From Azolla caroliniana (taxonomy: Eukaryota; Plantae; Polypodiophyta): a DNA stretch of 64,000 bases. Shown here piece after piece: positions 18,476 through 56,795 of this stretch. The notes below the pieces were generated by a model. It worked only from the letters and a program-made list of their open reading frames with translations. It did not search any database and was not told where the DNA came from. The translations under genes and the position numbers were made by a program. Location of the stretch: contig JBHGNT010000004.1 in NCBI GenBank assembly GCA_043228905.1, positions 19,096,001 to 19,160,000 on the forward strand. The letters run 5' to 3'. Positions within the stretch are counted from its first letter, which is position 1; each line of letters begins with the position of its first letter.

Positions 18476-20217
18476 TTGCAGAGAAACCATTACCAGAATA
18501 GCCCTGAGATTTTTTATATTTACAGAAGTAGCCACCCTTTCCCATTAGGGCCCAGAAAGTTTAATATTTTACCTACAAGGGTTCGTGTGGCCCATGTGAC
18601 AGAAAATGCACTTAGGATGACCCTATGGAATTGTAATGGCGCACTTTGGGCACACCCCGGCCGCCTAGAGGAGATACTAAAGGTATCTGATATACTTTTC
18701 TTGGTAGAAACACATCAGAGCCCAAATAGAGGACTCCCACGGGTCGAAGGATTCCGTTGGGAGTCCGCTTTTAGACAAACCTCACGTCGACACACTACTA
18801 GGGGATCTGGAGGTGTCGCGATACTATTTCGTAGAGAGCTACATAATAGGATAGAAATAACGAAGATAGACCCAGAAGCTCGTTTTATGTGGGTGAAAGT
18901 CTCCACAAGTAAAGACCATGCAGTATTTTTCGCCATTTGTTACTTTCCTCCAAAAGGATCCCGTTATAATATTAGTGGCTTGACGAGATTAGTCGATGAA
19001 GGAATGTCACATGGGCCTTCTCCATACGAACCCCTATCGGATGACATAATCCGATATTCTTCCCAAGGAGAAGTATTTCTTGTAGGAGACTTCAATGCGA
19101 GAACCCAATCCCGACAATGCACAGTATTTCAGATGAATAGAAACCTAGAAATGGTAAATGTTGATCCTTTAGACATAGGCACCACATGTAGATCAAAGGA
19201 TCAAGGTGCGGACGCCACGAGCTTTGGCCATCATCTGCTCGAACTTGGCAGTCGGCACCAGATGGTCATATATAATGGTTTAGCTAAGTGGTCGGGCTCG
19301 GAAGAGCTCACATGTTTCCCACATGGAGGAGGGGAAAGCACAGTTGACTATCTAATAGGGCGCCCTGAAGCTACCCACATGATTAACTCTTCCGAGTGGC
19401 CCCATGCCCTATTGGCGTAGACCATAGTTTCTTATACTTCGAGCTAAAATGTGATATCTCTAAGGTCACCAAGTCTAGTCAACCATGCCATCACACCACA
19501 ATACATTTCACACATGAGCTCTCTGACATATACTCTCAACATGTTCAGGCCCATCTCCCCTCCATTGATCCCTCCCTACCGTTAGAAAGCCTTAGTACAA
19601 AACTCACACACATCCTTCACTCCGCAGCAGCTAGCAGTTTTCCATATACAAAACACTCAAATCAAGGTAGATCAGGATCAATGCCACAAAATAAATGGTA
19701 TGACGAGGATTGTAGGGACCTACATAGACAACTTACAGTATCGCAACTCAATGGTAGTATTACCTCCATACAAGCTCGCAAAGAAATGCGTAAGATGACA
19801 CGTCGTAAGAGACGAGCGTGGGAGGCATCCCAATACTGGGAATAGGGATCGGCAACGGTTCGGTTTAGGCTTAGCCGGTTTGGCCTGATCCAAGCCAAAC
19901 CGGCTAAGCCTAAACCGTTTACAGGATCTCAAACCTGAGCCGAGCCAAGCCGAGCCGGTTCACAAACCGGTTTAGGCTAAACCGGTTTATGCTAAACCGG
20001 TTTGTGAACCGGCTTGGTAAACGGCTTGTAAACCGGTTTCCAAACCGGCTTGGAAACCGGTTTAGAAACCTCCGTCTCTCTCTCTCTCTCTCTCCCTACC
20101 TCCCTCTCTCTCTCAGATGATCCCTCCCACTCTCTCTCACGTCTGTGGTCTCGACTCTCTCTCCTTCTCCCTCTCTCTCCCCTCTATGTAAATCCTCTCT
20201 CTCTCCCCTCTATGTAG

Positions 20218-20253
<36 letters not shown>

Positions 20254-23200: not shown

Positions 23201-23595
23201 AACCAGACGTCCTCGGGTGCCGGGTTTCAAAGCAACTCGACGTGATGTGGAAGCAATATTGAAAATAAGGGAACGTGAGCTACACCGCCTAGAAGCCATG
23301 GCTAGGGCACTCTCTACATTGGAACCCACATCAAGACCCTTTGACCCCCCACTTCTTTTCGAGAGGCTTGGGTGGAAATAAAATTAGGCTTAGTGTATAG
23401 TCACTTTCGAGTATACTACATATTGTACACTACTAGAACTCTTTTAGTTTAAGTTCTATTTTTTTACTTAATTTTATTTTAGTTATGATGACTGGATAAA
23501 TACTCTATTGTTGTAAACCAATTGTCTCATGGGCCAAATTTGGCCTTAGAAGACGTTAATACATCTTTCTTTCTTTCTTTCTTCTCTCTCTCTCC
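18476..23595 (+). mobile_element. Near full-length single-ORF RTE-like non-LTR retrotransposon (APE endonuclease + RT + CCHC), inactivated and interrupted by a MITE
   Basis: APE motifs LWNCNG, LVETH, SGGVA, GDFNAR, STVDY. RT motifs EQAGFR, FVDFRKAFD, GVKQGCPLSP, LLYADD, YLGV. C-terminal CRLC..EDEYHFTCKC. Frameshift near 19395, TGA at 21654, and a (TCTT)n/(CT)n tail after 23563. 5' boundary uncertain. Confidence 0.9.
19843..20898. mobile_element. Non-autonomous hAT element (1056 bp) inserted in the LINE ORF
   Basis: Perfect 16-bp TIR TAGGGATCGGCAACGG / CCGTTGCCGATCCCTA. Perfect 8-bp TSD ACTGGGAA at 19835-19842 and 20899-20906. Subterminal AAACCG/AGCCG arrays and a central CT-rich minisatellite. 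Removing it restores the reading frame ASQYWELYHMLM. Confidence 0.95.
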
Positions 23596-33333: not shown

Positions 33334-35700
33334 TACCACATACCTTCGACAAGAAGGAATCCGGTGGGAGTTTACTTGCCGACACACACCTCAGTAGAAC
33401 AGAGTAGCCGAATGCAAGCCCCGACACATACTCGAGGTGGCAAGGGCAATGATGAACGAGAAACATTTGCCAAAATCATATTGGGCTAAAGTGGCGAATA
33501 CGACGGTCTATCTAATGAATCGTTGCACAACATCAGGAGTGCACGATGTTGCCCCCTGCGAAAAGTTCTATCAAAAGAAACTGGATCTATCCCACGTCAG
33601 GATATTTAGTTCAATAGCATATGTACATATTCCCGATGAGAAGCGGCAAAAGCTCAATCCCAAGTCGGAGAAATGTATACTCGTAGGGTACTCACTTGAG
33701 CAAAAAGGGTATAAGTGCTTCAATCCTTCCACCAAGAAGGTACGAGTGAGTCAGGATGTCGCATTCAACGAGTCGGCATCCTGGTATACAGTCGAATCAG
33801 CCCATCCGACACAGTCAAAACCGAGTTCAAAACATATGCGGAGGAGGAGGATCGACCGAGGCTCACATTAGAGGAAAGTCCAATCTCAACCAGGTTGAGT
33901 GGACCACAAGAACCTCCAAGCGACCAAAGCACATCACAGTCGAGTCCGAAACAGGACAATGGAAAGGCCAAAATGCTCGAGTACGAAGACTCAAATGGAA
34001 ATGAATCGACTCACTCACCTGATAGTGAGTATGGTGGACTAGATATGCCCATCATGAGGACAACAGGAGAACCACGTCGCTCCACCCGAGAAAAGAACGT
34101 AGTCAGCTGATTCGGCTACAACAACTACATGGCATATCATTATGCATTCATGATGAAGGTGGCGACAGTCTGAGAACCGGAAACCTTTTCCAAAGCCACG
34201 AAGGATCCTAGATGGGTCGAAGCGATGAATGAGGAGATGCAAGGACTCTCCAAGAATGAGACATGGGATCTCGTCCCTTCTTCACACCACCAAAAGGCAA
34301 TTAGATGCCGGTGGATCTTCAAGGTGAAGCACAACGTCGACGGCACTGTCGATCGGTACAAGGCCCGGCTTGTGGCGAAGGGCTACGCATAGGCACACGA
34401 TGTCGATTACAAAGAGACCTTTGCCCCGATGGCAAAGATGACTACAATTCAAACTGTGATCACACTTGTAACAACAAAAGGGTGGAACCTCCACCAAATG
34501 GACGTGAAGAACACCTTCCTCCAAGGCGATCTAGAAGAGAAGGTGTACATGGTACAACCACCCGGCTTCGTGTCAAGTACGTATCCAATTGTTGTCTACC
34601 GACTCAAGAAGCCTCTCTATGGCCTCAAGCAGGCACCTAGAGCCTGGCATTCGAAGATAATGCAATATCTTCACCAAATCGGCTTTCGAATGTCCAAGTC
34701 CGACAACTCTCTCTTCATCCGGAGCAACTCCAGAGGACAAGTATTTATCATCATTTACGTGGATAACTTGGTCATAGGAGGAGAGCATCTAACAGATATT
34801 GAGCACATCAAGAGGCTTCTCTCCAGCCGATTCGAAATGAAAGACATGAAGGAGCTTCATTACTTTCTAGGACTAGAAGTAATGAAGATAGTGTGAATCG
34901 ACACTCTATTGACAGCTAGTCGGAAGCTTCATCTCACAATTACCTGACCCGACCTGAGTTACCCAGTTGGCCACCTCAACCAGTTCATGCAAACTTCCCG
35001 AGACATCCATCTTGACTAAGCTAAGTGAGTGCTAAGGTATGTGAGTGGAACCTTGGATTTTGGCATCTTCTACATATTAGACACACCGATTCGACTCGTA
35101 GGGTATACTGATGGCAACTGGGCCGACTACAGAGCCGACCAACGATCGACATCCGGATTTGTTTCCTCTCTCAGCAGTGGCACCATACTGTGGAGTAGTA
35201 AGAAATAGCCAACAGTCGCACTATTGAGCACCGAAGCCGAATATAGGGGCACAATCGTTGCCGCATGTGAAGCCATTTGACCCAAGAGAATCTTGAAGGA
35301 TCTGGGTGTTCCCATCAAGGATCTGATTCTCCTCTACTGCGACAACATGAGCAGTATTCACCTCGCTCGGAACCTAGTCTTCCATGCTCGGACTAAGCAC
35401 ATCGAAGTGCACAATCACTTCATTTGAGGGTGTGTCTTTGTCGGGGATGTCGACCTGCAACACATGAGCGCAAACCTATAGACAACCGACATCTTCACCA
35501 AGGCCTTGGGAGTCAACAAGCTACGACAATTCACGACGAACTTGGGTCTTTCGATCGTCGACCAACCGAGCTTGAGGGGGAGTGATGACTAGCAGGAGTG
35601 AACCAATCATTCGAAGCTGAAGCCGGAGTTGACTCAAAGACGACCCGAAGATCAGTCAGAACCAACCATTCAACGACCGGAAGTTGTGTTTGAAGGGGCG

Positions 35701-36219: not shown

Positions 36220-39200
36220 TTTTTAAAAAAATAAAAAAAATCCTCCATTGGTATTAAAATTAAAGTGGCCAAAGCCAATATGTACACAAATAGTCTAAGT
36301 ATAGATCATCCGAGAAAGGACCAAAGGTAAGTGTTAGCATGAATCTCAATGTTCATCACTGAAAGAGATGTTGTTCTAGATTTAATCTCAATGTTCATCA
36401 CCGCTGCCAAGAACAAATATTGCTTAAGATGTATAGGAGAACTATTATCTTTGGTTCAGCTTCAATCTTGCCCTTATTATCCAACAAAAGTAATATTGTA
36501 TTACCGTGTGAACTGATCTGATCTTAAATCACTATCAAGAAGGAAGAATGCTATAGCAAGATCACGACGGTGTTTTCCATTAGAACATATGTATTTTTAT
36601 GCAACAACCTGTTTTTTCTACTCCTAAAAATCTTGAGTTAGAAATACATATAAAACTTTATCCTTCTCATCTCTACTTAGCTTAAAAAGACTCACTAAAA
36701 CATTCTTCTATTGTAAAGCAAGGTATAACAGTGTACAATTTTTGGGATCCTTTTCAGACAAGTATTGCACTCTAGCTAGCTTCTCCATCAGTTAACCAAA
36801 AACCGATTCCCAATTCTTGCACTGCCTGCCATGCGTGTTTATGTAGATGCACTTGATATGAAAGGTCACCGCTTTGTTGAAAGCTATGGTCTCTTTCAAC
36901 TGCTCTTGGATTGTTATAGACATACGCATGTCCCAAAGCATTAGTAATAACAGTTATACATGGGCACATGCCTCATGTCGGTGGAGGAAATACCCAGAGT
37001 GGTGGCTGATACCTCCAACGTATACCACCATTAACCATGTAGAATACCTTCATCCTTTCCCATCTCTTCTTAAAAACCTCTTGCTTTCGAAAGACTACAT
37101 CTGAATCACCTTTGATAGCACCATATTCTCCTTTAAAGAGTGTATGTACCAAGGTCACCCAAATCTCCTTGACTACATCCACAACATTCCATTGAATTTG
37201 CTTAAATATCCTTCGACATCTACTAGTCCACAAAACCCATATGGTTATTGAACTAATCGTCTCCCAAACACTCCATTCTAGACTGAATTAATAGGCATAC
37301 ATGGTGACACTTCCTCAACATATCGACCTCTTGTATATAATGCAAAGTTAACCTTTTCTTTTTGATAATCTTGTACCTCACCCTTAATATAAGCCCACAT
37401 CATTACCCCCCATTTATATATTCTAGAGCCATAAACCTCATGCAAGAGACGTAAAAATCTTTTCCAAACCAATTTGGCAGTCGTGCATGACCAAAATAGG
37501 TGATGAAGTGACTCCACTTCTAACCCACAAAAATCACAAATTTTATCCACTTATTTATAATACATCCAAACCCTAATAGGAACCGCATAATGAACAATCA
37601 ACCATCTAGATAGAATAATCTTCTCTGGAATTTGCATAACCCATAGCCATTTCCAAAATGTTGTCATTTGAGTAGGATCAACATTATAAGTCAATCATGT
37701 TGTAGCTGTTGTCGGCCAATGGGGTACCCTACATCTTATCATCTCCCTTCCCAATCGAACGGAATACTGAAAAAAGGGAATCGGCCTAACATCCTCCCCA
37801 GAATATGATGTAGGTAGCCACTTCCATTCTCTTGGGTCCCATTCCAATTGACATAATGGTTTTTTCTCCACTACCCATAGATCCCACCATGGATGAACAT
37901 CATTAGGATTAGGGTCAAGGACCCAAACCTTATCTACCTTAGCTAGAATTCTAATAGGTTTTAATATAGCCTTAGCCAAACATTCATCTTCCCAGGGAAT
38001 CGTCCCTAATCTTCCATCTTGTAGAACATCATAAAGTAAGAAAGTACCATCATCTCTAAGGCCACAGACTCCAATTAAAACCTGAAATTTTGAAAATAAT
38101 CCCACCCACTTATGACAACTAGAAAGTATATTAATTATCCTGCAAGGGTTACTACAACTTCCTTAACTCATCAACTATCATCTTTCCTCCACTTATTCCT
38201 CTATACTTTTGTTGAATAATATGAGTAGGGTTATGAACAAATTGTTGCCAATTACTATGTGATGAGGCAAAAGATGAATCCACTTAAGCCCAATTTAATC
38301 TGACTCTCCTCCCCAACATAGATCCTTCAACATCTAGAAATAAAGGATTCCAAATGAAGGGCTAATGTAACCATTCATCCATCGAATTGGGTCAGACTTG
38401 TTGCAAATTATCCTTTATGGACCACCAGGCTCGCTTTATCACGGCGAATAATCTATCATGTTGAAACACTATCTTATGTGAATAGAAGTTAGGAATAAAG
38501 CACCATCAGAGAGACCTTGTCCATTCACCTCCAGTTTTCGGGAAGACCTCTTTCATTCTCAAATAAAGAAGTATCTTCCACGGCTCATTTCTTGGCAATA
38601 ATCCTCGTACTACAAATTTTGCCAATGACGCCTTACATTGCATCAGAGAATCTACCAAATTTAAACCCCCTTGAGAAGTCAGCGCTAGGTTTTCCATGTT
38701 ACCTTTGGTCTAACATTCTAAAATCAGTAGATCCCCATAAAAAATTCCTAATCAATCTCTGTAACTTTGACCCCAAAGATCTGTAGAATAACCAAGAGGA
38801 TAGAATATACCCCATTGAGGAGAGTAATGCTTGATTAGAAATAACTAGCCTCCCCGCAAGTGACAAATTCTTAGAACTCCAAAAGATCAACTTCTTCCTC
38901 AAAGAAAGTTGTAATGGTTGTATATGAGCTTCTGGAGGAAGATTAATTCCCACTTTGCACCCTAAATATCTCGCAGGAGATCCCTTTGGTATCCAACGAA
39001 ATCCATTGTTTGGACACCAAGTAGGAGTAAGACGTTTCCCAACCCAAAATCCCACTGATTTATGCCAATTAATAATAGCACCTGAAGTATCACAGAAATC
39101 ATGGATCATATTTTGCACATTACATAGATTTCTATTATCTCCTACAACGTATAATGCTATGTCATATGCAAATTCACAATCTAACACAACCTCCTCCACA

Positions 39201-39730
39201 CTTGGCCACTGTATTCCCTTAATTGATAACCTATTCTTATGCAAGAATGCACTAAAGGAGTCTCCTACAAATAGAAATAAATATGGAGACAAAGGATATC
39301 CTTGCCTCACCGATCTAGTAATCGGAAAAGTATTACCTAGTGCTCCTACAACAAGAACTTGACTAGATGTTGAATTATATAATGCAAAAACAACCTTAAC
39401 ATAGTCACTTGGAAGACCTAGACGACCCATAACTTCGTATAAGAAATTCCAATCGACTCTGTCAGATGCTTTCTCAAAATTCAAAAGCAATATTGTCAAT
39501 TCTTGTTTTGTTTCTTGCACTATTGCTATCATCTCCCAAAACATGAAAATACTAACAAATATGCTCATTTCCTATATAAAGCCTGTCTGAGTTTTATGCA
39601 CAATATGTGGAAAAAAAGGTTGCAAAAGTGTTGCTAATAATTTAGCATAAACTTTATGTATAGTATTTAAAAGAGTTATAGGCCTCCATTTCTTAATATC
39701 ATCCACCGCACCTTCTAACTTTGGAATCAA
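36220..39730 (-). mobile_element. 5'-truncated L1/Tx1-like LINE ORF2 remnant
   Basis: KWRPITLLN near 39690, NFEKASDRVDW, SVRQGYPLSP, RYLG, LSLAGRL, and zf-RVT-like CDFCGLEVESLHHLFWSC. Putative TSD ATTGAAAAATATAAA at 36205-36219 and 39731-39745; it is AT-rich, so the boundary is tentative. Confidence 0.8.
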
Positions 39731-40214
39731 ATTGAAAAATATAAAATTTTTAATTTGAAAATTGAAAATGTGAATTTTGACCTAACTTGAAAACTGAAAC
39801 CGTGGTTTTAACGGTTTGCTTTAAATGGTTTCGTGGTTCGGTTCGGTTTAAGTTTCAAATTTATTAAACGGTTTGAGTTTGACACTCAACACCGGGTCAT
39901 TTGAAACAGGTAATATGTCGCATTATGAGAACACTACGTCGAAAAAGGGCACAAAAGCACACAGTTTTCAAAAAGACACGACGCATGCGTAAAGCTTTTC
40001 AGAAAAGGTGGCAAAATATATTGAATTTCAACATGACTACCACTTTGAGGCATAAGTAAAATGCCTCCAAAAATACATCACCAAAATTACAAAATAATGT
40101 ACAACATGTCTACCAGTTACAATTATACATATTCGTGAGTTTACATCCAAAACAAATTTACAAAGTTTTCGATCATGTAGTAAAACAATCCCCAGCTTGA
40201 ACCAAACCAATATA

Positions 40215-42886
40215 TTAAGACATGTCTGATGGACTAGAAGAGCATTCTGACGTCTCATCCTCATCATCAGTGGCAATCAAAGCATTATCCTCATCCAATT
40301 CCAACCCAACATCTTTGTGGTTATGAGAATTGCTTTTGGTTATTCTCTGTATTTTGTTTGACACCATGTTTGGGATTTTCTCCTTTATTATCTTGATAGT
40401 TGCTTGTCTTAGATGACCTGATTTTGTCAATGAGAAGTCATATACTAGTATGTCAACACGGTCTAGTGCGAGAGTAGCCGTGCTCGGTATATTCTTTCTT
40501 CTTCTCTTTCTGCTTGAACATTCGACATCCTTAACCATCTCTAAAGAATACTTTCCTATAAATGCATCAGGTGAATTTGTCTGATACCAGTGGACTACTA
40601 TTGACTTTGTCTGACTACTTTCTTCATCCCTTACTAATTCAATAATTTTTGCAATCTAAAATGGATGGCCCAAGGTATCGTCCCCTGCTAATGTTGCAAC
40701 CAACATTCCCACTTGTAGTTCTTGCAAATTACCTTGCCATCTTGCCTCAACAGTACGTGACTTTCTTGGTCCCACATAAATATCTCTTTGCAGTGGCTGA
40801 ACTAAATCATGAAGCTCCATATTATTCGATTGTTGGTGATGAGTCTGCGATATCGTTGATGTCATCCCAATGTTCCATGTGAATGGGATATAGATTGGCC
40901 ATAAACCGGCGATGTAATTATCTAAAATGGTGCGTTGATGGGTGAAGAAAATCTCCCACCATTCAACATCCTCATCACCGGCATACTTCTTAGTCCGATC
41001 AATATTATTTTGTTTCTCTGCTAGACATCTCAACCAATATGCCCTTTGTTCATCAATAGTACTATTTGGTGCTACATTTTTACGATCATCATATGGCATT
41101 TGTTGTGCACCATGTAGAGGTTCATCTGGGATATGAAGAAGGAACCTACAACCTTCTTGGGGCTCCCATTGTGCACTAGATGAGTATTGTTTCGCAAACA
41201 ACACCGTCATCTTCAGGTGGGCCGATCTTTGTTTTATGAGGAAGACATGGTTGAAACTTATATTATTAAGACGTGCAAGCACCTACCTTTAGTCCCGTCA
41301 CTATCCATGCAGAAACGTTTAAAGTCGTATACTTCTTCCAAGTGTTGTACTTCAGGCTTTGGTGTATATGCTTCACTAATCAATTTGGATAGCGTGGGAA
41401 GTGTGAAAGCATTATAGCGAGCAAGTTTCTTTGAGAACCTACTGAACATTTGATCTATGTGATCATGGGTATGACCAACCAACAAGAAGTTAACCTTTAT
41501 CTTTTTAAATATGCCCCTCTCTACTAACATGCTTAGATAGCCAAAGACAGTTGAGTTCTTATTCTCTCTTGCTGTGTTGTCTAGTTGCACATATAGAACT
41601 GGCGGGAGTATACCTAACCATGATTGCAATACCCTGTGCATGACAGTGACAGTAAGATTAGGGTCGTTGTGGATATTGGGATAAGTTAAGAACACTTGCG
41701 GTCTTATAGTTTGACAATATGTCAAACAACCCACTAGATGCATTTGCACGAGACACTCATCTCCAATATCCTTGGGGAGTCTTTGAAAATGCGGCAAACA
41801 AGTTTTCTTTTGATCCATGCCGTCAATAATCATGCACATATACTTTTCGGGAGATTGAAACGCTTTTTGTCGGTGATGCATAACCTTAGTACGTTCCAAT
41901 GCCTGACTTTCACGATGTTCTTTTAACAGGTTCTTGTAATTCTTGATCTCTACATCTGATTTTCCACCCTTGGCCATACTTTTTAAACTCGCACATATTG
42001 AGCAGACTCCCATTCGCACCGTTCGTGGGATAACCACGTTATTAAATTGTAACCTCCATAGTCGATTAAAATGCTTGTACTGTATGTAAGGCTCAACATC
42101 GGAAGACATGTCGTCCTTGTACGATTGGTAAACTTCCCTTCGAGTAAAGTTATCTGACAAATGAAGTCTTCCTGTCGTTGGCATAACTTCGCACTGTTTT
42201 GAAAAATATACCTCCATCCACCTAATTGCATGTTGCCCAATTTGACCCTTACATCCAGAACCATTTTGATCGAACTGTACCCAGGAGCCCTTCAGAAGTC
42301 GCTCTTGAACTCGTTGTAGCCACATATTTCCAATGCTATGAGTGATTTTAAAAGCTGCTCGACAACACTTGGTATTTAGTCCAAGGAAATATTCAACTTG
42401 CGTTGAATTAGGCCCTGCTTTGTGATCCAATTTAAGTTGCATATGCGAAAGAAGAAATGTATCTTGCTCTTCCCCATTAAGCGACAAGTATTTTTGTCGT
42501 GTTTCACGTAACCTTGACTTTCCATAAGTTGATAGACAGAGATTCGCACAACACGATTTGTTCAAGTCGCATAGAAGTTGACGATCAGAACATAAGAAAT
42601 TAAATCTCTTTTCACTAACTTGTCGAGGAACTCTTTTAAATGCTAGAGGTTTAGTAATGCTATTGTTATCTATCGACGAAGAATCGTCCGCTTGTAAGCT
42701 TGCATGAAGAGGGCCATCAACAGGATCAATTGAAAACAGAGAATTCGAAGTACTAGGAGCCACACTTTTCTGTTTAAGCCGCAAATGTTTTTTGTGGTCG
42801 TACTCTTCTATTGAGAAATACGAGTTGTCTGACAATGAAAAGGGGGCAATAGAAAAAAGAGATGTTCTACTTGTAGAAGAAGACAT
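40215..42886 (-). pseudogene. Sola-like DD(D/E) transposase, about 890 aa when repaired, with C-terminal BAH-like motif
   Basis: Cys motifs (SCCANLC, CCRAAF, P..VRMGVCSIC...KEH) and acidic catalytic-type motifs IIDGMDQ, YVQLDNTARENKN, FLLVGHTHDHIDQMFS. One 1-nt frameshift near 41282 and one TAG at 40656-40658 join ORFs 41258-42886, 40656-41282 and 40215-40538. Confidence 0.8.
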
Positions 42887-43183
42887 TTGAGGGAGTCTAA
42901 CTGTATTCTAAAACCTTCTTTTGAGAAAATTAAGGAATGCTAAAGCCTAACTATATAACTACCCGAACACTTAGATTAACTATATTATTTTCCGAAATTT
43001 TCCTAAAAAACAAATAATTAAAAATTATTTTTTATTTTAAAAGGAATGCTAAAGTCTGATATATAAGGAGGTTAGAAATTTCATTTTCATTATCACGTGA
43101 AAGAATCCATCGAGCTCAGAGCACAGGCCAATTTTCGAGCACTCAGAAGCACATCGTCGACAGCACTACCTCCGGCACGAACC

Positions 43184-46100
43184 ATGAACAAGGGAAAGAA
43201 AATCGTCAGGTTAGTAATATTCTTTACATTTTTTAAGATTCCTAAAGATTCCTTAAAGATTCATTTCCTCAACACATAGAAATTTTATTTTATTTTGTAC
43301 AACGAACTTGGAAAGCAATTCTGAAAGGCAGGACCTTCAACCCAAATCCGATGCATTGCATCGGATTTTGGTTGAAGGTAGGACCTTTCAACCAAAATCC
43401 GATGTAGTGCATCGGATTTTGGTTGAAAAAAATGTTGTTTTTGCGATAAAAAACTATCACATGGGACCATAAAATTGACGTAATTTAAATGATAATTTGC
43501 GTGATTTAGATAAAATTGTAGGTTGTTTCTATGTTTTCACCAACGTTTTTAATTTCAGTGAACCCAGACAAAAAGTTCCTTCATTTAGATTGAAGATTCG
43601 ATCTCCGACAAAACGAGAATCTGGCTCCTTCATCAAGGACACGAGTAAAAAGATTTTATTTGACTCAACGGGGGAAGGAGGATCCAAGTCATCTGTGGCT
43701 ACTACCAAAATCAACAAAGGTAGTACGCAAGAGGAGAAAACGGTTGAGGTGAAATATAAGGATTACCCCGAACTTGAATGGTGTCTCTCTTATGTCGAGG
43801 AGGATGGGGTGTTGTTATTGATAACGGCAAAATCGGACGGGGAAGGGAAACTTTAGCTTGGAAAAACATTTAATTACGGGCATGTAACCAAGCTAGAGTA
43901 CGAAGACATTGACTCTACAAGTATTTTAATCGACGTCTCGAGCTCAGTTGGCAACAGGCGATTGCGACTTGATGAGGGAAACCTAGTACCCGAATCTTGC
44001 AATCCCAAGGCTTTGTGTAAAGACCTGCAAATGAAAAATAACTTGTTGGTAGCTCTTCGGCCGTACGTGATAGGAGAGATGATGACCGGTGAAGCAGAAA
44101 CTCTACCGAAAAAGTCTAGGAAGACAAATCCTGTTCAAAAGAAATATACTAAACGACCACGACCCGAAGAAGAAGAAGAAGAAATATTAGAGTTCGTGGA
44201 AGAAGAAGACGACCAACAAGTCGACGTCGTGGCTCCAGGCGGACAACTATCTTCTGGTGTCCTGACGTCAGAACAAAATAAAATAAGAGAAAATATTGTG
44301 AAGACTAAACTTGTGCGCAGGGGCCAGCTATTTCATTTGCCCATTACTTCTATCCAAAGGCCCCCCATTGACCCCGTGACTGGAAGACGTCCCTTGGAAA
44401 TTAGGGAGCCGCACTCCGTCCATGTGCAAAACCTGAAAAGCAAAATGAAAATCAATCCTCACGCTACTACGGTGCCATTTTTGGTAATGGTTGATCAAGA
44501 ACAATGCCCAACAGTAGCAGATTTCAAGTATAGCTCTGCAGACGATTACACATACTATGTAATCGGAGGATAACATTCGGCCGAAGCTCGACGACAGCTT
44601 GTCAAAGAATATCCTCTCACGCCGTTCTTCAAGTACGCCGAATGTAAGGTATATGCAGGACTAACTCACGAGGAGGCGAAGCTGCTCGCATGGGACCATA
44701 ACAATGACAACGATTATAGGCAAAAGATGTCATGTATAGAGAGGATAAGATTTTTTCATCATGAATACCTGGATGCCTTGAATCGTTTTGGTCCAAGATT
44801 GTGGCCTGGATTGCGACGCTAGTGTTTATTGGAAGTAGGGATTGCAGTGGATGAGAGTACCAAATCCGAAGGTCTCCGAAAATATGATTCTTGGTTTCAA
44901 CTAGCTTTTCGAACCGGAGAGGTGTGGGATCTCCAAGACAAAATATTCTCTATGTGGGAGCGGAAAGAAGTCAAGGGGCAAAGATAAAAAAAGGGAAGAA
45001 TTGATCCACAAGTTGAGATGAAATCAAAGACCAAGGGAAAAAGCGACTTGGTAATCGAGGAGTTAGCAGAGGACATGAAACTTTTACCTTGGAGATCATT
45101 ACAAGGTATCAAAGATGATAGATTGTTAATATCCGTGCTATCTCGAGTGGTCGCCAAGGAATTTAGTTTGGACGAGATGGTAACAGACTTGCAAAAGTAA
45201 GTGTTTATAGTATACCTTTTCATGAAAGTCTTCAATTATTTTGAATATCTTATTTCTAATTTCATATTGATTGTGCAGTCACAAGGTATACATGAAGATT
45301 CAGGAGTTGATGATGCAAAAACTGAGTTTACCAACATGGGAAGAAGTTGAACAAGCCTGCCCAATAACTTCTTCCTACAAGGCATTGGAGGAATATTTTA
45401 TTGTATTTAGAGAATGGGTATGTGTCTTTTGAATGTTGATATGTTAGAAACTAATGTTCCCTGCTAACAACAATGACACTTGCAGAAACCATCAAAATCG
45501 AAAAAGAATAACGACAATAATGACGGTATTCCAGCGGCCTTCATCACGCACTTAGAACGTGCGAAATATGAGAAGAGAATGACCAAAGGGAAGGAAATGG
45601 AACTGCCCGAGGATTCGGAGATTGTAAAGAGTTTTTTGCATAGGTCCGATCCTTTCAAACAGCTTCATTATAGTGTTTTCAATGGCGAAGTATCCCAGAT
45701 GCTCGAACTGTTACCGAGAAGGCACTACACTTTGTTGATAGCTGACATACCATATGGTTTCCGTATTGCGGGATCAACATATGATGATGTGCCTTTCAAG
45801 TACCCTCAGATCGAGAAAATGGTAAAGGATTTCGCAGAACTCACATTGGCCCCCTTGTGGAGGATAGTCATATTTCATAGCATGGGGTAATCACTGTCAG
45901 TCACAACAGCTTTGAAGTCCCGTTGTCATGCCACTAAACACATGCATTGGTGCGTTATAGTTCGCTTTTACTCATTACAGTACTTCTTATTATATGTACA
46001 CATTTACACCTCTAATACTTGATTTTCTTTCTCTATATGATCAAAACAAATATTACACGTAGCCCTGGCGATCCAATGGTTAGTGCGGTCGAACATTTTT

Positions 46101-46770
46101 GTGTGGGCTACTATGATTCAATTACAAAGAAGAAGGCTAGAGCACATGTCAATGAGCGTAACGTGGTTAACTACATCATGTGCCCAGCTGTAACCAAAAA
46201 ATTAAGACATGTGTCAGGGGATAAAAGTATGGTGAACCCTTATCAAAAACCTCAAAGATTGATCAACCGCCTCATAGAGCTCTTCTCGAATCCAGATGAT
46301 TGGGTCCTAGACTTGTTCTCTGGCACAGGTATAATATATATATATTTAATTTCAATCCTGTCGATCAAGTTTAAGACGTTACTTCTTATATATACTTGTT
46401 TGTGTTCATGCGACCATTAGGTACAACGACAGCTTGTGCATTGAAGATGTTTAGAAACTGTGTTGCATTGGAGAAGGACCCTGCTCAAGTTAACTTCATC
46501 AAAATGAGAATCACAGGAATCTGGGACTGTCCAGATCAGGATCAAGAAGTCGGAGCAAAACACATCAACGAGACAGAGATGTTCCAGATGACTTCACGAG
46601 AACCAATGGAACCAATTGATGAAGAAGCAGGGGAGCTGGTGGACCTGGAAGATGTAGCACAGTTTGACCATACATCAGATTTGGGAGAGCTTGGAGATGA
46701 CACAAATGAAAACAGTCTAGAACAATCAGCGCCAGAGGAGCCTGCTCTGCCTGATTTGCTTATAGATTGA
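43184..46770 (+). pseudogene. ParB/Srx-like domain + beta-class N6-adenine/N4-cytosine DNA methyltransferase; exons 43184-43209, 43559-45196, 45279-45417, 45486-45949, 46039-46328, 46421-46770
   Basis: ParB-like LFHLPITSI..R..HVQNLKSKM...PFLVMV...YYVIGG*HSAEARRQL...CKVYAGLTHEEAKLLAWDHN. MTase motif IV LLIADIPYG, then W/IKTN...VEHFCVG, NPYQKPQRLINRLIELFSNPDDWVLDLFSGT/GTTTACALKMFRNCVALEKD (motifs X-I-II). Five phase-compatible introns. Five in-frame stops (43854, 44571, 44820, 44985, 45888) and an apparently mutated acceptor before 46039. Confidence 0.85.
43333..43428. repeat. Two tandem near-perfect palindromes in intron 1 of the MTase gene
   Basis: ACCTTCAACCCAAATCCGATGCA-T-TGCATCGGATTTTGGTTGAAGGT (43333-43379) and TTTCAACCAAAATCCGATGTA-G-TGCATCGGATTTTGGTTGAAA (43386-43428). 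Confidence 0.9.
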
Positions 46771-47918
46771 TGTAGATGGCGTAATGTAAAAATTGAGGAT
46801 TTTGAGGCATAATGTTCACCATCACTTCATATTATATTTGTATATGAGAACATCTGTAATTGTTTATCGTTTAATTAAATTCACCTGTTCATAATTTCCC
46901 TTTTTAATCATTATTGGAACCGTAGTTTGTATTTACATATAATTGGTCACCATGCTCTTCTTCAGTTTGAGATATTAACATGATATTGTAATTTCTCATT
47001 TCCGTTAGCATGACTGTATATGAAAAGGCAAATGTTTTTGATAATAAGAGGTTTTTAGTTACCTACGGTTCAAGTCTACTGGTTCCACATAGTATAAATG
47101 AATGTCGTACATAATTGTTACTCTTACCAATTACATTGTCATGAACTATATGACATTATACAATGAAACTATCGATATACCCGTCCAACAAGTGGGGTAC
47201 TACTTTATTCCTAAACCCAAAACCACATATTTATAATTACGGTTTATGTAGTTTTACTCTACAATTTGAATATGGATACCAATTTTAGAACTTTATATTG
47301 AACCAAGTCTTCAATTGTGCTCCATGATATACAAATTGACACGAATGTGGACACATATACAATTTAGTAATTGCTAGGTTTTTTTTGTTCTATATTTAAC
47401 CATCAAGTTGCAAAAGGGGTACGCATGCATCGTATATTTTCGATATCAGGCTAAAATAGGGTACTTTTCTACATCTGGCCAACTATGCCAAAAGAGAATA
47501 CGACATATTACCTGTTTCAAATGACCCGGTGTTACTCTTGAACTAAACTGAACCGTTGTCAATTGCTAGGAAGGTGGGCAGGCAAGGGATGCACTTCATG
47601 GCCATGGTCATCGCTCACATTGTCTCTTTTCAGTTCCCGTTTCCGCTCTCAAAGATCTCCCTAATGAGTTTGTCCCCCTCGCTCCACATGATTTGCCTTG
47701 GGAACCATGAATCGCATCCTCGCTTGGCCTGCCTTGTAGAACAACAAATGAACGAGTAAAGCAATTCAAGAATAAATGCCTTTTGCTTATGCTAATCAAT
47801 TACATCAGTTTTTGGTGGATCGTGGATCATCTTCACTATTCCTTAGTTGTCCCTACTTCACATGCCCTACACCTTGGCTTAATGTATCATGCTTACCATT
47901 GGAAATCCTTTTATGGAT

Positions 47919-48618: not shown

Positions 48619-51030
48619 CTAAGGGAATTTTTGTCCCAATCTCATAGCTTCGATTTTCTTTGCTTCATTTTGCATGCTAGATGCCACATAAATGTTAATC
48701 ATACATATATACGCCGCCTCACATTTTTTATCCAATCGTATCATATGGTTGAATGCAAGTCTGGCAAGTTCAACATTGCCCCATTTTTTACAAGAACCTA
48801 ACAAGGAAGCCCACAGTGGAAAATGATTATAAACGGGCATCTTACTTATTATAGCCATCACATTCCGAAATAGTCCGGCTCGGCCAAAAAGATCAACCAT
48901 ACAAGTGTAGTGTTCTAGCGTTGCAACGATCCCATGATCAATGCTCATTTTTTCAAAATACATTTGGCCTTTCTCGAGTAGACCCGAATGACTACAGACA
49001 TTAAGCACAATAGTGTACGTGATGTGATTAGGCTCTAGACCCTCTTCGACCATTTTGTCGAATAAGTCCATAACGATCTCATCTCTCCCATGTCGGGCAT
49101 ATCCGGCTATTAATGCAGTCCATGAGACTTCGTCTTGAACTATAAGCTTGTCAAAGACCTCGTGTGCTTTTTGAGGTGCTCCACATTTCGCATATAAATC
49201 TACCAAGGCATTTCCGATCAAAATCTCTCTCTCTACCAATCCTTCTTTATCAATTTGAGCATGTATTGCTTTGCCTTTCTCAATCGCGGCTATGCTTGCG
49301 CAAGCTTTCAATATGCAAATAATAGTGACTACGTCTGGAGAGAATCCTTCATGTTGCATTTTACCAAAACATGCGAGAGCAGCTTCGCCTTCTCCAACGT
49401 GAACATATCCTGAAATAAGAGAATTCCATGAGACCACATCTCGGATCAGGGAGTCATCGAAAACTTTCTGTGATTTTGCTAACATGCCACATCTAGCATA
49501 CATATCCAGCAGTGCATTGCAAAGCAGGACATCTTGTGATAGAGATTCGTTGACAACAATCTTTGCATGTAACTTCTGGCCTTTATCAGATGCTCCTGAT
49601 ATGCCACAAGCTTTCACGACACAAACAAAGGTCACATTATTTGGGCAAATGCCCTCGCATTGCATCCTATCAAAACAATCAAATGCTTCCTCGTCATGCT
49701 CGTATTCAGTAAAAGCAACCATAAGTGTCGTCCACGAGACAACATCTCGAATTGGAAGTAGGTAAAACATTTCTTGTGCCTCCAAAAGTGCACCACATTC
49801 GGCATACATATCGACCAATGAAGTGCCAAGGACAATATCCCTTTCTAATAAATCCTCTTTAGCTATTTCACCATGTATTTCTTTTCCCTTTTCAAGTGCT
49901 CCTATGTGTGCACAAGCTTTCAAGATACAAACAAATGTGAATGAGTCTGGAGAAAGACCTTCATAGTGCATCAGTTGAAAGCAGCATAGTGCTTCCTCAT
50001 AATGTCTATGATCAACATACCCAGCCATTAACACATTCCAAGAGACCACGTCATGAAATAGAAGCTCATTAAACACTTGCTGTGCTTTTACTAGGGCACC
50101 CAATCTAGCATACATGTCAACCAATGCATTTCCAATTGAGTTTTGTTTTTCACTTGGCAACCCATCTTTTACAATCATAGCATGTATTCTTAGACCCTTG
50201 TCATTAGCTCTGGTACTACTACAGGCCTTCAATATGCATGTGAAAGCAACTTCGTTTGGTGCAACACTCTCACACTGCATCCGTTCGAAACAGTCTAATG
50301 CTTCGCAAATGTGGTCATGCTGGACATATCCTACAATCAATGCAGTCCAAGAGACCACATCATGGACCAAAATGTCATTAAACACATCTTGTGCTTTTAC
50401 AAGTACACCACACTTTGCGTACATATTCACCAACGCAGTGGCAATCAATACATTTTCTCTCATCGATCCATCTTCTACAATCTCAGCGTGTATTTTTTCT
50501 CCTTTTTCTATTGCTCCTATGATCCCACATGCCTTTAAGATGCAAAGAAAAGTGATAGCATTCGGAGATATGCCATGTGATTGTAATTGTTCATAATACA
50601 TTATTGCAACTTCACCATGTCCACATCTAACATATCCTGATATCAAAGCTGTCCATGAGACTATATCTCGAACAGGAAGATTATCAAACACCTCTTTAGC
50701 TTTTACAAGACAGCCACATTTTGCATACATATCGATTAACATGCTCCCAACATAATTAGCTTCTTTGCCAAACAACCCACTTTCAAGAATAGTGGCATGT
50801 ATTTTAATACCATTTTCCAGATCTTTTTGCTTTGAACAAGACTTGAGCAATGCCATAAGTGTACCAAAGCCATCTACTTCTTGGTCAATTTTACAGTTAA
50901 GATTCAACAAACATCGCATTTCTTGTGGTTCACAATGAACTGTCCCATTTCTCTTTCTTCTCTTTTCCACTGCATGCTTTCGTGTGGTTTGCCATATCCG
51001 TCTTCCTCTCCAAAGCACGTGGTTCTGCAT
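48619..51030 (-). CDS. PLS-class pentatricopeptide repeat protein with E domain (no DYW), intronless, up to 803 aa
   Basis: Repeating P-L-S triplets (LVDMYAKCG...A..VFD...RDVVSWTALI.GY...P...TF.CILKAC), then HYTCMVDLFGRAG and the E motif WASLLGSCKKWGNVELA...AAYICMINIY. Start codon uncertain. Confidence 0.93.
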   Translation of the reverse strand: MQNHVLWRGRRIWQTTRKHAVEKRRKRNGTVHCEPQEMRCLLNLNCKIDQEVDGFGTLMALLKSCSKQKDLENGIKIHATILESGLFGKEANYVGSMLIDMYAKCGCLVKAKEVFDNLPVRDIVSWTALISGYVRCGHGEVAIMYYEQLQSHGISPNAITFLCILKACGIIGAIEKGEKIHAEIVEDGSMRENVLIATALVNMYAKCGVLVKAQDVFNDILVHDVVSWTALIVGYVQHDHICEALDCFERMQCESVAPNEVAFTCILKACSSTRANDKGLRIHAMIVKDGLPSEKQNSIGNALVDMYARLGALVKAQQVFNELLFHDVVSWNVLMAGYVDHRHYEEALCCFQLMHYEGLSPDSFTFVCILKACAHIGALEKGKEIHGEIAKEDLLERDIVLGTSLVDMYAECGALLEAQEMFYLLPIRDVVSWTTLMVAFTEYEHDEEAFDCFDRMQCEGICPNNVTFVCVVKACGISGASDKGQKLHAKIVVNESLSQDVLLCNALLDMYARCGMLAKSQKVFDDSLIRDVVSWNSLISGYVHVGEGEAALACFGKMQHEGFSPDVVTIICILKACASIAAIEKGKAIHAQIDKEGLVEREILIGNALVDLYAKCGAPQKAHEVFDKLIVQDEVSWTALIAGYARHGRDEIVMDLFDKMVEEGLEPNHITYTIVLNVCSHSGLLEKGQMYFEKMSIDHGIVATLEHYTCMVDLFGRAGLFRNVMAIISKMPVYNHFPLWASLLGSCKKWGNVELARLAFNHMIRLDKKCEAAYICMINIYVASSMQNEAKKIEAMRLGQKFP

Positions 51031-52094
51031 CTCCTACTTATCATCCTCTGACCCTTGAATGCAAAATGGGGAATCCAAGCCATGGATCCTTTTAACAAAA
51101 CCTTCTCCTTCAACGATAGCAGAGCAAATATGTGGTCGTGTGGTGAACAAGAATGCTGTGTTTTACTAGACTTATAGCTTCCTAAAACTCTTCTGCACCG
51201 TGATTGTTGGAGGAAATCCTCTGTTCTATATACATATATGTATGTATCAGTGTCAATCATTTGGATGGATACTCATACATACTGATACAGACACATTTGT
51301 TGTGGGCTATTATGGCATGCACATTGACATGACCATACACCATAGCCAAGGATGTTTTCCATTCATTCCATTTCATGTGTAGTGAGCCCAGGTCTATTTC
51401 TCACTTCACACTCTCTCAGGCCCCATGAAATCCCATGCCCTAAATGTTCGATCGGCAATAACACATTGTATGTTTCAATGAAATTAGGCGTGGTTTAGGG
51501 TTTTTAGGGTTTACGGACACTTCAATCGCCTCTGACATTAGGCATAGTTCCATATATTTATTATTATATGTGGTTGGATTAAATTCATTGTTAAATCACG
51601 AGCAGTGAAAATCTTTGCATGGGTTTTGGTTGTGTTGAAACATATAATGTCTTTAAGTCATTCATAAACATTGTAAGGGCATTTCACATACAACTTGACA
51701 TGTGAAAATCATTGACTTGTCATACGAGCACTTTGTATCACAGTGTTATCAATGTACATATATATATCCTAAGAGTGTGAGTTTAACAACATTGAGTAAA
51801 CCCTCTCATACATTTCTCTTCCGTTCCTTAACTAATAATCACTCCACTGACCTTTTAATGCCCTTATCACCTTTTAATCATTTTCACCTCTATTACTACT
51901 TGGAAGCGAATATGACAACTTTCAGAACGAATAAGGCATCTCCGTGATGACCATGAAATATGGATGTGAATGTCGATGACAAGATAATAGGCTTTCGTAG
52001 CAAGGGGGCAATACAAAACAATATAATATCAGCTTGTGATTAGGCACTACATTGCAAGGATATAATAAACCATTTTTATGAAATCCATTAGTGT

Positions 52095-52558: not shown

Positions 52559-55500
52559 GTTGGTATCTTCGCAACTCATCATGATGTATATTAACATCAA
52601 TCGGGGCTCGTGGTTGAAAACCATACATCAACATAAAAGGACTATATCCTGTCGACGTATGCTTGGAGTTGTTATAAGCAAACTCCAAATTTGGGAGATA
52701 ACGTTCCCATTTTGTTGGTTTTGCACCAACATATGCTCGAAGCATGTCCTCAATAATTTGATTTACTCGTTCTGTTTATCCATCGGATTGAGGATGATCC
52801 GTGGAGCTCATGCTCAACGTAGTTTCTAACTTCTTAAAGACTTGCGTCCAGAAGTCACTAGTAAATTTTGGATCTCGATCACTCACGATATCCATCAGTA
52901 ACCCATTAAAACGAAATAACTTGTCAACGAATTGGTAAGCCAATTCAAGAGTTGTTACCGTGGTTTTAGTAGCAATAAATCTGGCCATTTTAGTTAGTCG
53001 ATCAACCACAACCCAGATGGCATCATGGCCTTTTTGGGTGCGAGGAAGCCTAACAATAAAATCCATGGATATACTTTCCCACTTATTGTTGGGAATGTCC
53101 AAGGGATATAAAAGTCATGCGGCTTTAAGTCGCTCGGCTTTGTTAACCTGACATTGGTGACATTTAGTCACATAGCTATGTATGTCAGGATGCATCTTAG
53201 GCCAATAAAATTGAGTGGAGATGAGAACGAGTGTATGATGTATTCCAAGGTGCCCAGCTGAGGGTGCATCATGGCATTAAAAAAGAATCCTCTTTTTGAC
53301 CTCGAGTAAATCTGGAACACAAACCTTCCCATTACGGTAGAGCAGACAGTTAGCAATGTGGAAGTATTCCTTCGAGGATGTGGTGGTGTCTGTTCCAGAC
53401 TCAACTCTTGCTCAGTATTTTGCAAAATAACTGTCATCAGGATACTTTCCTTGAAGGTGATCATAAAGATCTTATGTTATTTCAATGAAGCTAAGCATGT
53501 TAACTTCACGAATGCAACTTAGTGCATCAGAGACAGTGTTCATGGAACCTTTACGATATCGTATGGAAAAATCAAAGTCCTGGATGAGATCAGCCCATCG
53601 TGCCTTATGACCTTTCAGGTCTTGTTGGTCACAAAAATATTTCAAGGACTCGTGGTCCGTAGTTACCACAAAGCGATTTCCATAAAGATAATGGCACCAT
53701 GTTTTGAGCGCATGTATCAAATAATTCATTTTCTTGAACGGTATACCGACATTGAGCAGAATCAAGTTTCTTACTCTCGAATGCTATTGGTTTACCATCT
53801 TGATATAAGACAGCACCTATAGCATAATCGCTTGCATCAGTTTCAATGTCAAAAGGTTTTGAAGGATCGGGTAAAAGAAGTGAAGGAGCCTTGCATACTA
53901 GGTCCTTGAGTTCCTTAAAGGCGAGGTCTAGTGTAGCATTCCAAACAATAGGTTTTGTAGACTTACGCGTTTGACCTTTTAAAAGATCAATAAACAACGT
54001 CATCAATTGGGAGTAATTACGAAGGGATTTTCGCAAAAACCCAACAAAACCAAGGAATGATCGAACTTCTCGAATATTCCGAAGAGTGGGACAAAGCTTG
54101 ATTTTCTCGATGCAAGAAGGATCAATTGCAACTCCTCGTTCGGTTATGAGATGTCCAAGATAAGTAATTGATTTCTTGAAGAACTCACATTTTGAGATCT
54201 TCGCATAAAACTGTTTGACACGCAATGTTTGTAAAACAAAGCGGACATGTTTAGCATGTTCTTGTACTGTACGACTATAAACTAAAATATCATCCAAGAA
54301 AATAACGACAAATTTTCCAAGTTGTTCTCGGAAAATGTCATTCATTTCTTGTTGAAATGTAGTCGGAGCATTGGTCAAACCAAAAGGCATAACCAGAAAC
54401 TCATAATGGCCATAGCGCATACAAAATGCCGTTTTAGGAACATCGTCCTCACTTATACGAATTTGATGGTAGCCAGTACAAAGATCAAGTTTTGTAAAAT
54501 ACCGAGCTCCCTAGAGACGGTCAATTAGATCGTCAGCCCGGGGCAATGGATACAAATTCTTGATCGTCACTTTATTCAAAATTAATACACATACGCCATG
54601 TGCCCTCTTTCTTTTTAACCAAGAGAACTGGTGCACCCCATGGAGATTTACTATAGCATATATAACCCATTCGTAAATAGTCCTTGAGTTGCTTAGATAC
54701 CTCATCCTCTTCGGATCGACTTAAGCGATAAGGAGGTATACTTATTGGTGCAACGCTAGGTACAATATCTATACGATGGTCTATATTCCGTTTAGGAGGT
54801 AAACCATCTGGTAGTTCACTCGGAAAAACATCACAAAAATCATTTAAGATTTCATCAAGTTGTTGTTGTTCAAAATATGTTAATTGAACCGAGACATTAT
54901 CGATATTGTAAACGTGAATGTCCGGATCAAGTACACAATAAAATAGAGTAGAACAAGACAACTCGGATATTGATGGACACGAGGAAACAATCGAGAGGGA
55001 TTGTTTTTTGACACATTGAATAAAATGAGTACAGTCATTCAGTACAAATGTAATTGAATGATGAACCCAATCAATAGATAAAGAAGAGCTTTTATTATAG
55101 AACCAGGGATAACCCAGTATTACATCAGTGGTACAAAGATTCATTACATGGAAGTCTACTTCCTCTATATAAGTATCAATAGAAATTCCTAATGAATGAA
55201 TTGCCCCGTTGATGTATTGTACTCTTCCATTTGCCAAGTGCACCGTATAGGTCTGATCAGTTACAGTGAGTTGGATTCCCCATACCTGAACCAAACAATC
55301 ATTCACAAAGTTGTGTGAGCTTCCCGAATCAAATAAAAATTGTACGGGAGATGCATTGATATACCCGTTTGCACGTAGTAAATCATTGGGACCCAATACA
55401 TAGTGAGGGAAAGAACATTGACAATTACTTAAATGATGTGTATAGACCTGAAGGACATTAGGAATCTGACCTTTATGGTCTGCAACTTTAGCTTTGTTAT

Positions 55501-56795
55501 CGTGCTCTTTCCGTTGGAGCTTTCGACATTGCTCTTTTGTATGACCCTTCTTTTTGCAGAATACGCAAAAAGGATGTTGTTGCTTACAATCGCGATCCAT
55601 GAATTCGTTGGGTGTCTTGCGTTTCCCAACGAATTGCGACTGCTTAGTCCCGGGCGCTTCGTTGGGTTTGTTGTGGTCCTTCTTCGAAGTGCGTTGATAG
55701 CGAAGAACTATTTCAACGGCCTCTTCGAAGGATTTTGGATCCTTATCATGCACTATCCAATGATAGTCCGAATTGGGGATGACATTGACAAAACAAGCTA
55801 TTAACCAATTGTCCCCTTCTAGACCCGATTTTCGGATTTGGGTTCTAGCATGGTGGACATAATCTTCTAGCGAGGAAAACTTCCTGCTAGAGAGGTTCAT
55901 TAAAGCTTGTGCTGCCTTGGTTCGAGAGGGAGGTTGCAGAAATTGGCCCTTGAAAACTGTGACAAAATCTGTCCAAGTATTGGGCAATTTCCCCAAAGTA
56001 CGGAGCCCACACCACCAGGCGGCGGCCTTACCCCCTAGTTCTCGGCCGACATATGCAATCTTCGTACTATCTGGCGAAAAATACATCTCAATGGACATTT
56101 GTCCAGGAGGATTCCCTTGAGTTCCTTCCACTTGAGCGGATGACATCAGGTCGTTATTTTGAGCCATTAAATGATTATTTCTGGAAAAGAAATAGGATAA
56201 GGTCAAAGAGATAGTCATAACGTCATGTCGTGATGTAAACATATCATGGGCAAACATTAATCGATATCATGATCTCACGTCAATACCCCTCTAGACGTAT
56301 GAGATGAGGCTCAAGATTAGGTTACTATGGTAACACAAAGGTGTTTTAAAAACCATGGGGGTGACAAATAAATGTCTTTCCCCGATCTCTATATTGATTT
56401 TTTTCATGGTGGCTCCTGGAGGCTCAACCATGTATGTTCGCATCATGAATAGTTTATACACGAAAAAAATGTTAACAATAAACTATGTTTCGGGGCCCAC
56501 ATATGTGGTTTCGGCTCTTTAAGTCCTATTACGAGAACCCCGAAGTGCACTTAGACCGCAAGTCTAAACATGTGTTATAGTCATATGTATCAACGATGTT
56601 GTTTGGTCTTGGTCATATTTGAACTCGAGACCTTGAGAACAAATGCATTAAACACTTGAGCCAACCAAGTAGGTTGCTCTTCTTGAATGTTTAATGTTTC
56701 ATGCGTATAAGAGATATGCGAGGCATTTGCCCATATATGTTTTTTAAAATCACGTCATAACTTATATACATATATGTATATTATCACATATATAC

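Follow-up and report, generated by a model that had tools for sequence, protein, structure and literature searches.

Here, we describe a 7646-bp transposon in a 64,000-nucleotide stretch of DNA from the fern Azolla caroliniana (GenBank assembly GCA_043228905.1, contig JBHGNT010000004.1, positions 19,096,001 to 19,160,000 of the forward strand), which at its full length is called the window below and to which all unlabelled coordinates refer. The element, at 39888..47533, belongs to a multi-copy family of cut-and-paste DNA transposons and is itself decayed. Besides a Sola-like transposase it carries a second gene (gene 2), which, to judge from its codons, is under strong purifying selection and whose protein is predicted to combine a ParB-like domain with an amino-methyltransferase (MTase). 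The kind itself is known from Ectocarpus; new here are its occurrence in streptophytes including land plants, a compact version that is intact, evidence for selection and a candidate site for binding. We give about even odds (0.5) to the proposal that the protein of an intact member binds a palindrome in intron 1 and writes N6-methyladenine (6mA) on its own element, helping copies to evade silencing by 5-methylcytosine (5mC).

Termini, transposase and gene 2

The terminal inverted repeats (TIRs) at 39888-39920 and 47501-47533 are identical over 33 bp, and the identity extends to 36 of 37 positions with one mismatch (left TIR 39888..39924, plus strand; right TIR 47497..47533, minus strand). Directly outside them stand the two copies of the ACTC target site duplication (TSD), at 39884..39887 on the left and 47534..47537 on the right, a length legible at one locus, the window copy. 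In the window the TIR occurs at just these two places, the expectation from 100 shuffles being 0. Two genes lie head-to-head inside the element, with starts about 300 bp apart. The original prediction, which was made from the letters alone, had described an element with exactly these boundaries, repeats and gene arrangement, and both its coordinates and its TIRs and TSD were reproduced. CGGTT/AACCG repeats abound in the 100 bp surrounding the insertion site, and the element may therefore have inserted into another repeat.

Members of the family were gathered with a 23-nt TIR pattern, which gave 45 loci in metagenome contigs. The 46 TIR junctions carry 42 distinct 20-bp flanks, which shows that the family is mobile, and the target shows a mild A/T bias. 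Contig L018 (7870 bp, coverage 111) covers the entire element with 98.4% identity to the window; since its two flanks share no duplication, it is probably a collapsed repeat. Compared with it, the window copy shows 65 substitutions and three indels: the transposase gene lacks 1 bp, intron 1 has 51 bp duplicated and intron 5 has gained 2 bp by insertion. C>T or G>A changes account for 46 of the 65 substitutions and hit 4.1% of CG, 4.4% of CHG and 0.43% of CHH sites, a bias that is the footprint expected from host 5mC silencing.

The minus-strand gene (40215..42886, a single exon with its ATG at 42886) encodes a DUF7869, Sola-like DDE transposase. In a profile search it matches DUF7869 with E-values (E) of 2e-51 to 2e-52, and its acidic motifs are IIDGMDQK, QLDN and GHTHDHIDQ. 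DUF7869 probably corresponds to the Sola transposase domain. In the window copy the gene is broken, having lost 1 bp near 41281 and acquired a stop at 40656-40658; in L018 it is uninterrupted (890 aa). Its closest named relative comes from Ceratopteris richardii (60% identity), and in a quick tree of 29 fetched proteins the fern-like and Riccia sequences are separate from those of animals and Cymbomonas; no direction of transfer is claimed. Two short members of the DUF7869 transposase cluster, P0279 and P0281 of Riccia, bear the UniRef name 'BAH domain-containing', a hint that the C-terminal region of the transposase may be a chromatin-reader-like fold.

Gene 2 is the plus-strand gene and is split into six exons in a model built on L018. 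Exon 1 (43184..43209) opens with the presumed ATG at 43184. Exon 2 (43559..45196) encodes a variable N-terminal region followed by a ParB/Noc-fold domain and a helical domain, and exon 3 (45279..45417) a helical linker. The first half of a beta-class amino-MTase, with motif IV DIPY at 45744-45755, is encoded by exon 4 (45486..45949), the YQKP motif and the motif I that binds S-adenosylmethionine (SAM), DLFSGT/G, by exon 5 (46039..46328), and the end of the MTase together with an acidic tail by exon 6 (46421..46770). The splicing is inferred from the intact L018 gene, where a 968-aa frame stays open across five GT-AG introns, and from diverged copies, whose exon boundaries are similar. In the window copy four in-frame stops fall in exon 2 (43854, 44571, 44820 and 44985) and one in exon 4 (45888), and the intron-4 acceptor at 46038, in front of exon 5, is lost by mutation. 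With six stops, one frameshift and one lost splice acceptor in total across both genes, the window copy is dead.

Copies, selection and homologs

The second gene belongs to the family, as the original prediction took it to: gene-2 sequence is present in all eight right-end loci that have at least 700 bp inside the element, several of them being one subfamily assembled from different samples, and the transposase is present in 4 of 7 left-end loci. Three of these eight right-end loci (L004, L010 and L013) show just the last gene-2 codons near the TIR. In L004 and L010 the start of gene 2 is joined to its end, thus these are internal-deletion derivatives without both domains. The non-autonomous derivatives share the right TIR (L004 2371-4648, L010 1-2604, and L013, where the end of gene 2 only is seen). 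L010 also holds a second copy of gene 2 with four open exons, 54-67% protein identity and saturated synonymous sites. At L010 2582-2640 a family TIR end stands within intron 5 of a diverged gene-2 copy, as the result of nested insertion into a relative or else of a chimeric assembly.

We also looked at sequencing runs. The stretch in question is present in 20 of 22 listed runs, which bear four organism labels or are plant or leaf metagenomes. Read depth was followed in four runs (four organism labels) over 43480-47700, on the gene-2 side of the element. The summed contig depth is about 500-25,000 within the element versus 14-21 in the flank, a rough sign only of high copy number. At positions 43854, 44572, 44820 and 45888 nearly all of this depth reads a sense codon, and at 46038 it reads an intact acceptor. 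In run X5, 30 contigs run off into other sequence at the right TIR (47533). In run X10 (organism B) one contig crosses the same TIR-flank junction as in the window (47507-47700), and a second, diverged version of this flank in X10 matches the flank in X11 and X15.

The selection on gene 2 was assessed by comparing L018 with L001, a contig of 87% DNA identity. The ratio of nonsynonymous to synonymous rates (dN/dS) is 0.07 over 956 codons, and it is 0.027 for the ParB/helical part and 0.031 for MTase exons 4-5; the L001 gene contains one stop.

Homologs of gene 2 are numerous. With HMMER, 452 relatives of exon 2 were found at E<=0.001; a word-based search with the read-through exon 2 against proteins of 957-2730 aa gave no match, and the MTase region of one homolog, P0020, gave 1 match against short proteins. 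The named relatives, among 26 looked up, come from Chara braunii, Riccia sorocarpa, Adiantum nelumboides, A. capillus-veneris and Ginkgo biloba. Several homologs combine the same N-terminal region with a full MTase. In Riccia, the homolog R1sor_010796 (PF01555) is flanked by R1sor_010795 and R1sor_010797, both DUF7869, and R1sor_010795 shares 37% identity with the L018 transposase over 474 aa. The Chara braunii protein P0005 (GBG86584.1) is an 1825-aa gene model with two tandem ParB-like and MTase units, which are possibly two adjacent elements merged by the annotator. In an Atlas search for look-alikes, streptophyte clusters came first and were followed by phage ParB_N + N6_N4_Mtase proteins (scores 0.87-0.88, to be read as a lead only). 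Genome scans with the MTase alignment gave 43 pattern matches in viruses and 3 in prokaryotes, none of which was confirmed, and no close donor was found in them.

Domains of the gene-2 protein and the intron-1 palindrome

By its fold, the C-terminal domain of gene 2 models as a SAM-dependent beta-class amino-MTase. The modelled protein is the homolog P0020 rather than the window or L018 protein (28-row alignment, pLDDT 77), and the fold calls rest on Foldseek, in which the top match is CcrM (E 1.8e-12), followed by M.BceJIV and M1.HpyAVI and then by N4CMT, MboIIA and RsrI. Moreover, PF01555 is above the cut-off, exon 5 matches N6_N4_Mtase with E 2e-9, and matches to PHROG DNA methyltransferases reach E 1e-27. 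The phage MTases are about 25% identical to gene 2, in the MTase part only. The original prediction had named such a domain, and had pointed to motif IV DIPY standing before motif I FSGTG; we find DIPY at 45744-45755 and DLFSGT/G at 46310-46328 + 46421, which in the L018 model are residues 688 (DIPY) and 847 (DLFSGTG), that is, the beta-class order.

Motif IV of gene 2 is D-x-P-Y, as compared with the canonical (D/S/N)PP(Y/F/W). DLPY is found in 3 of 6 proteins annotated as phage MTases, and among the papers listed in a literature search for the DLPY motif none contains the term. The first residue is Asp in 8 of 8 homolog matches with the full motif as well as in L018 and L010, and Ser is never first among the family members seen. 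In the text of one report SPPY is linked to N4-cytosine and DPPY to N6-adenine (N6A) methylation (PMC8885841); the Asp in the first position thus favours adenine over cytosine as the target. From Chara to ferns, three residues of motif IV are conserved (Asp, the second Pro and Tyr), and so are the YQKP motif and the Gly-rich motif I.

The exon-2 part of the L018 protein (pLDDT 86) finds the ParB of Myxococcus, Noc and KorB as its top Foldseek matches, with a best E of 1.2e-5. There are 15 matches at E<=0.001, all those listed being ParB or Noc, over about 290 aligned columns and with TM-scores of only 0.24-0.40. The Pfam ParB families gave no match in gene 2.

A candidate site for this domain is the palindrome in intron 1 (43336..43427), which lies within a 41-bp inverted repeat and has the core ATYCGATRC-N3-GYATCGRAT. 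It is doubled in the window by the 51-bp duplication and single in L018 and L001, and the diverged L010 copy, of 54% identity, also has it, upstream of exon 2. It is repeated in arrays in L004 (5), in the derivative part of L010 (11) and in L015 (5), often with a spacing of 63-82 bp, and it is absent from 10 shuffles of the 177 kb. Derivatives without both domains keep and expand it, as would be expected of a site that acts in cis and is served in trans. A parS-like CACGTG near 43095, seen by eye, was set aside, since it is likely to be a plant G-box or to have arisen by chance.

What gene 2 may do, related systems and surroundings

In the mechanism that we propose, the ParB-like half of the gene-2 protein would dock on the intron-1 palindrome, its MTase half would methylate adenines on the element's own DNA, and the adenine marks would help intact copies to stay transcribed and mobile despite host 5mC silencing. 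Here we infer expression, catalysis, the adenine target, palindrome binding, action on the own element and the anti-silencing benefit. The original prediction had already suggested self-marking; the idea fits both the ParB-fold domain and the internal palindrome, and has been put forward for an Ectocarpus element too, as far as the available text of that report goes (PMC12477816).

Several points weigh against self-marking with 6mA. ParB needs an arginine patch, GxxRxxA, for the binding and hydrolysis of cytidine triphosphate (CTP). In the GGxH motif of the family Arg follows His in 0 of 42 matched motifs, thus a canonical CTP-driven clamp is doubtful and we class the domain as ParB-like and not as a ParB CTPase. 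Motif IV is not only non-canonical but also variable (DIPY, DFPY, DLPY, DAPY, DVPY, DIPH and DALY), some of these forms coming from broken gene models. L018 and L001 each represent a collapsed repeat and not a single allele, the diverged L010 gene is interrupted by a TIR end so that its own ends are not seen, and a transposase neighbour is tagged for one of five Riccia gene-2 locus tags, in partial lists. The CG and CHG mutations of the window copy imply that any protection from 5mC is incomplete. Finally, a preprint reports, in its accessible part, that streptophytes lack abundant 6mA and that transposon-encoded DAMs, which are another class, brought no gain of 6mA in E. coli (bioRxiv 10.64898/2026.05.21.726589).

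Some of these points would suit a protein that acts mainly by binding. Gene 2 could encode a sequence-specific anti-silencing or transposition helper similar to VANC of VANDAL elements, with an MTase that binds SAM or flips bases and leaves little or no lasting mark. The irregular motif IV and the missing ParB arginine would agree with it, as would the inactivity of transposon DAMs in E. coli in the one preprint, by its accessible account (bioRxiv 10.64898/2026.05.21.726589), and VANDAL accessory proteins work via induced hypomethylation according to the available text of the Bostrychia preprint (bioRxiv 10.1101/2025.02.11.637652). However, the MTase positions named above (in motif IV, YQKP and motif I) are retained from Chara to ferns, and the constraint on the MTase exons equals that on the ParB part, which makes a catalytically idle helper rather unlikely. 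Slightly less probable still is the same targeting with a different mark, N4-methylcytosine (4mC); sitting on cytosines within the palindrome or close to it, 4mC would keep 5mC out. N4CMT and PvuII are among the Foldseek matches, the beta-class fold being common to both activities, CG is found on both arms of the palindrome core, and plant 4mC is documented in Marchantia in the portion of a preprint available (bioRxiv 10.1101/2021.02.12.428880); on the other hand, motif IV begins with Asp and never with Ser in all family members seen, and the top-ranked structures are N6A enzymes.

The substrate might also be RNA, namely the element's own transcripts, or single-stranded transposition intermediates in place of chromosomal DNA. 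METTL3 is among the beta-class folds (Foldseek E ~1e-7), and so are DpnA-type single-stranded DNA enzymes, and such enzymes shifted to RNA repeatedly, as stated in part of a published survey (PMC4738411). We hold this to be improbable, because the MTase is fused to a ParB/Noc-like fold that binds double-stranded DNA, a DNA palindrome is conserved, and double-stranded DNA enzymes top the Foldseek ranking. A host or bacterial gene fragment that was captured once and is now passive cargo would agree with both genes being broken in the window copy. This reading retains next to no probability and we regard it as refuted by the intact frames of L018, the dN/dS of 0.07, the diverged subfamilies, the occurrence under four organism labels and the Riccia linkage.

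Self-marking with 6mA can be put into a broader frame, which we hold only tentatively and consider somewhat less than probable: an old, streptophyte-wide Sola-like lineage (Chara, liverworts, ferns and Ginkgo) may carry a complete, self-addressed system for methylation, consisting of ParB-fold reader, parS-like palindrome and amino-MTase. The marks, 6mA or 4mC, would go onto the lineage's own copies and in trans onto non-autonomous derivatives rich in the palindrome, and this in plants believed to have no abundant 6mA. If true, this would be the first transposon shown to self-methylate in order to escape 5mC silencing.

The nearest known system is Sola1-1_Ec32 of the brown alga Ectocarpus (2025). 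In the accessible text of its description, its accessory gene encodes a ParB-like and N4C/N6A MTase protein of 1104 aa that the authors propose to bind and modify its own element, and the best blastp match of the element is a transposase named Sola1-1_PPa (PMC12477816). The statement of the original prediction that canonical Sola elements carry a transposase only is not supported in view of this gene. Compared by description, the window element and L018 are of the same accessory type, with ParB-like and N4/N6 MTase parts in one protein encoded on the opposite strand inside the TIRs. As described there, a 4-bp TSD, termini beginning with AAC and an accessory gene opposite to the transposase strand are also shared (PMC12477816). 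Sola1-1_Ec32 is, however, 21.5 kb long with 282-bp imperfect TIRs and 2 intact copies, and the supplement, as far as it is available, calls the gene Ectocarpus-specific (PMC12477816), whereas the present element comes from a land plant, measures 7.6 kb, ends in perfect TIRs of 33 bp and has a defined palindrome, and its family comprises many copies, with one contig that is intact and consensus-like. No brown alga is named in 30 look-ups.

Red algae offer a second parallel in PAG2/PAG3, accessory genes of Plavaka (EnSpm) elements. According to the available part of the Bostrychia preprint these elements are likewise DNA transposons; one gene encodes a PF01555 methylase and another is ParB-like, and arrays of inverted repeats are the proposed binding sites; the best HHpred match of their ParB-like protein, 7BNR, is rank 2 in our Foldseek search with L018 exon 2 (bioRxiv 10.1101/2025.02.11.637652). 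They differ in that the transposase belongs to another superfamily and that a methylase-SET and a ParB-2OG oxygenase are encoded by two separate genes (same source). The phage ParB_N + N6_N4_Mtase fusions have the same order of two domains as gene 2, which differs from them by its introns and the added helical domain. Bdelloid N4CMT (PMC8885841) and Marchantia DN4MT1 (bioRxiv 10.1101/2021.02.12.428880) are, in the text at hand, eukaryotic beta-class amino-MTases of bacterial origin too. They are described there as domesticated host genes with SPPY that write 4mC and have a chromodomain fusion or no added domain (PMC8885841; bioRxiv 10.1101/2021.02.12.428880), whereas gene 2 belongs to a transposon, has D-x-PY and includes a ParB fold; the Marchantia enzyme, with TSPPY, is separate from gene 2 (bioRxiv 10.1101/2021.02.12.428880). 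DAM-DIRS and DAM-LTR elements also encode adenine MTases proposed to mark their own copies, but they are retrotransposons with an NPP-type DAM, and the accessible part of the preprint reports DAM-LTRs as absent from Streptophyta and, in its main text, mentions neither Sola nor ParB (bioRxiv 10.64898/2026.05.21.726589). ParB-linked MTases have been noted in chlorophytes, chytrids and haptophytes, and land plants are said to have few N6A MTases, in the consulted portion of Iyer 2016 (PMC4738411). Our literature search, with most subscription papers, Repbase and bioRxiv supplements outside its scope, found no paper describing a ParB and MTase cargo in a transposon of land plants or charophytes.

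Self-marking of DNA by transposons is so far a proposal for algal elements, according to the available texts (PMC12477816; bioRxiv 10.1101/2025.02.11.637652). A compact, intact, high-copy land-plant family with a defined candidate site makes the idea directly assayable. If active, the gene-2 protein would provide ferns and liverworts with a source of 6mA or 4mC that is both local and mobile, which would bear on the reading of 6mA and 4mC calls in the repeats of these plants, and it could give a programmable-site methyltransferase with a long palindromic address.

The surroundings of the element contain both intact genes and other repeats. Just to its left is a decayed reverse-transcriptase fragment of a long interspersed nuclear element (LINE; RVT_1, E 1e-12) at 38699-39781 on the minus strand, and 1.1 kb from its right end is an intact PPR gene with an E motif, of the organelle RNA-editing type (48619-51033, minus strand). 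An intact single-ORF gene for a bHLH-MYC (MYC2-like) transcription factor lies at 4788-6914 (minus strand). Decayed retrotransposon remains are of the Copia type (RVT_2) at 33398-34896 (plus strand) and of the Gypsy type (gag, protease and reverse transcriptase) at 53629-56266 (minus strand). Another LINE (18377-23381) holds, between its endonuclease and reverse-transcriptase parts, a palindromic AAACCGGTTT-rich repeat cluster at 19840-20075, which adjoins a long CT-rich tract.

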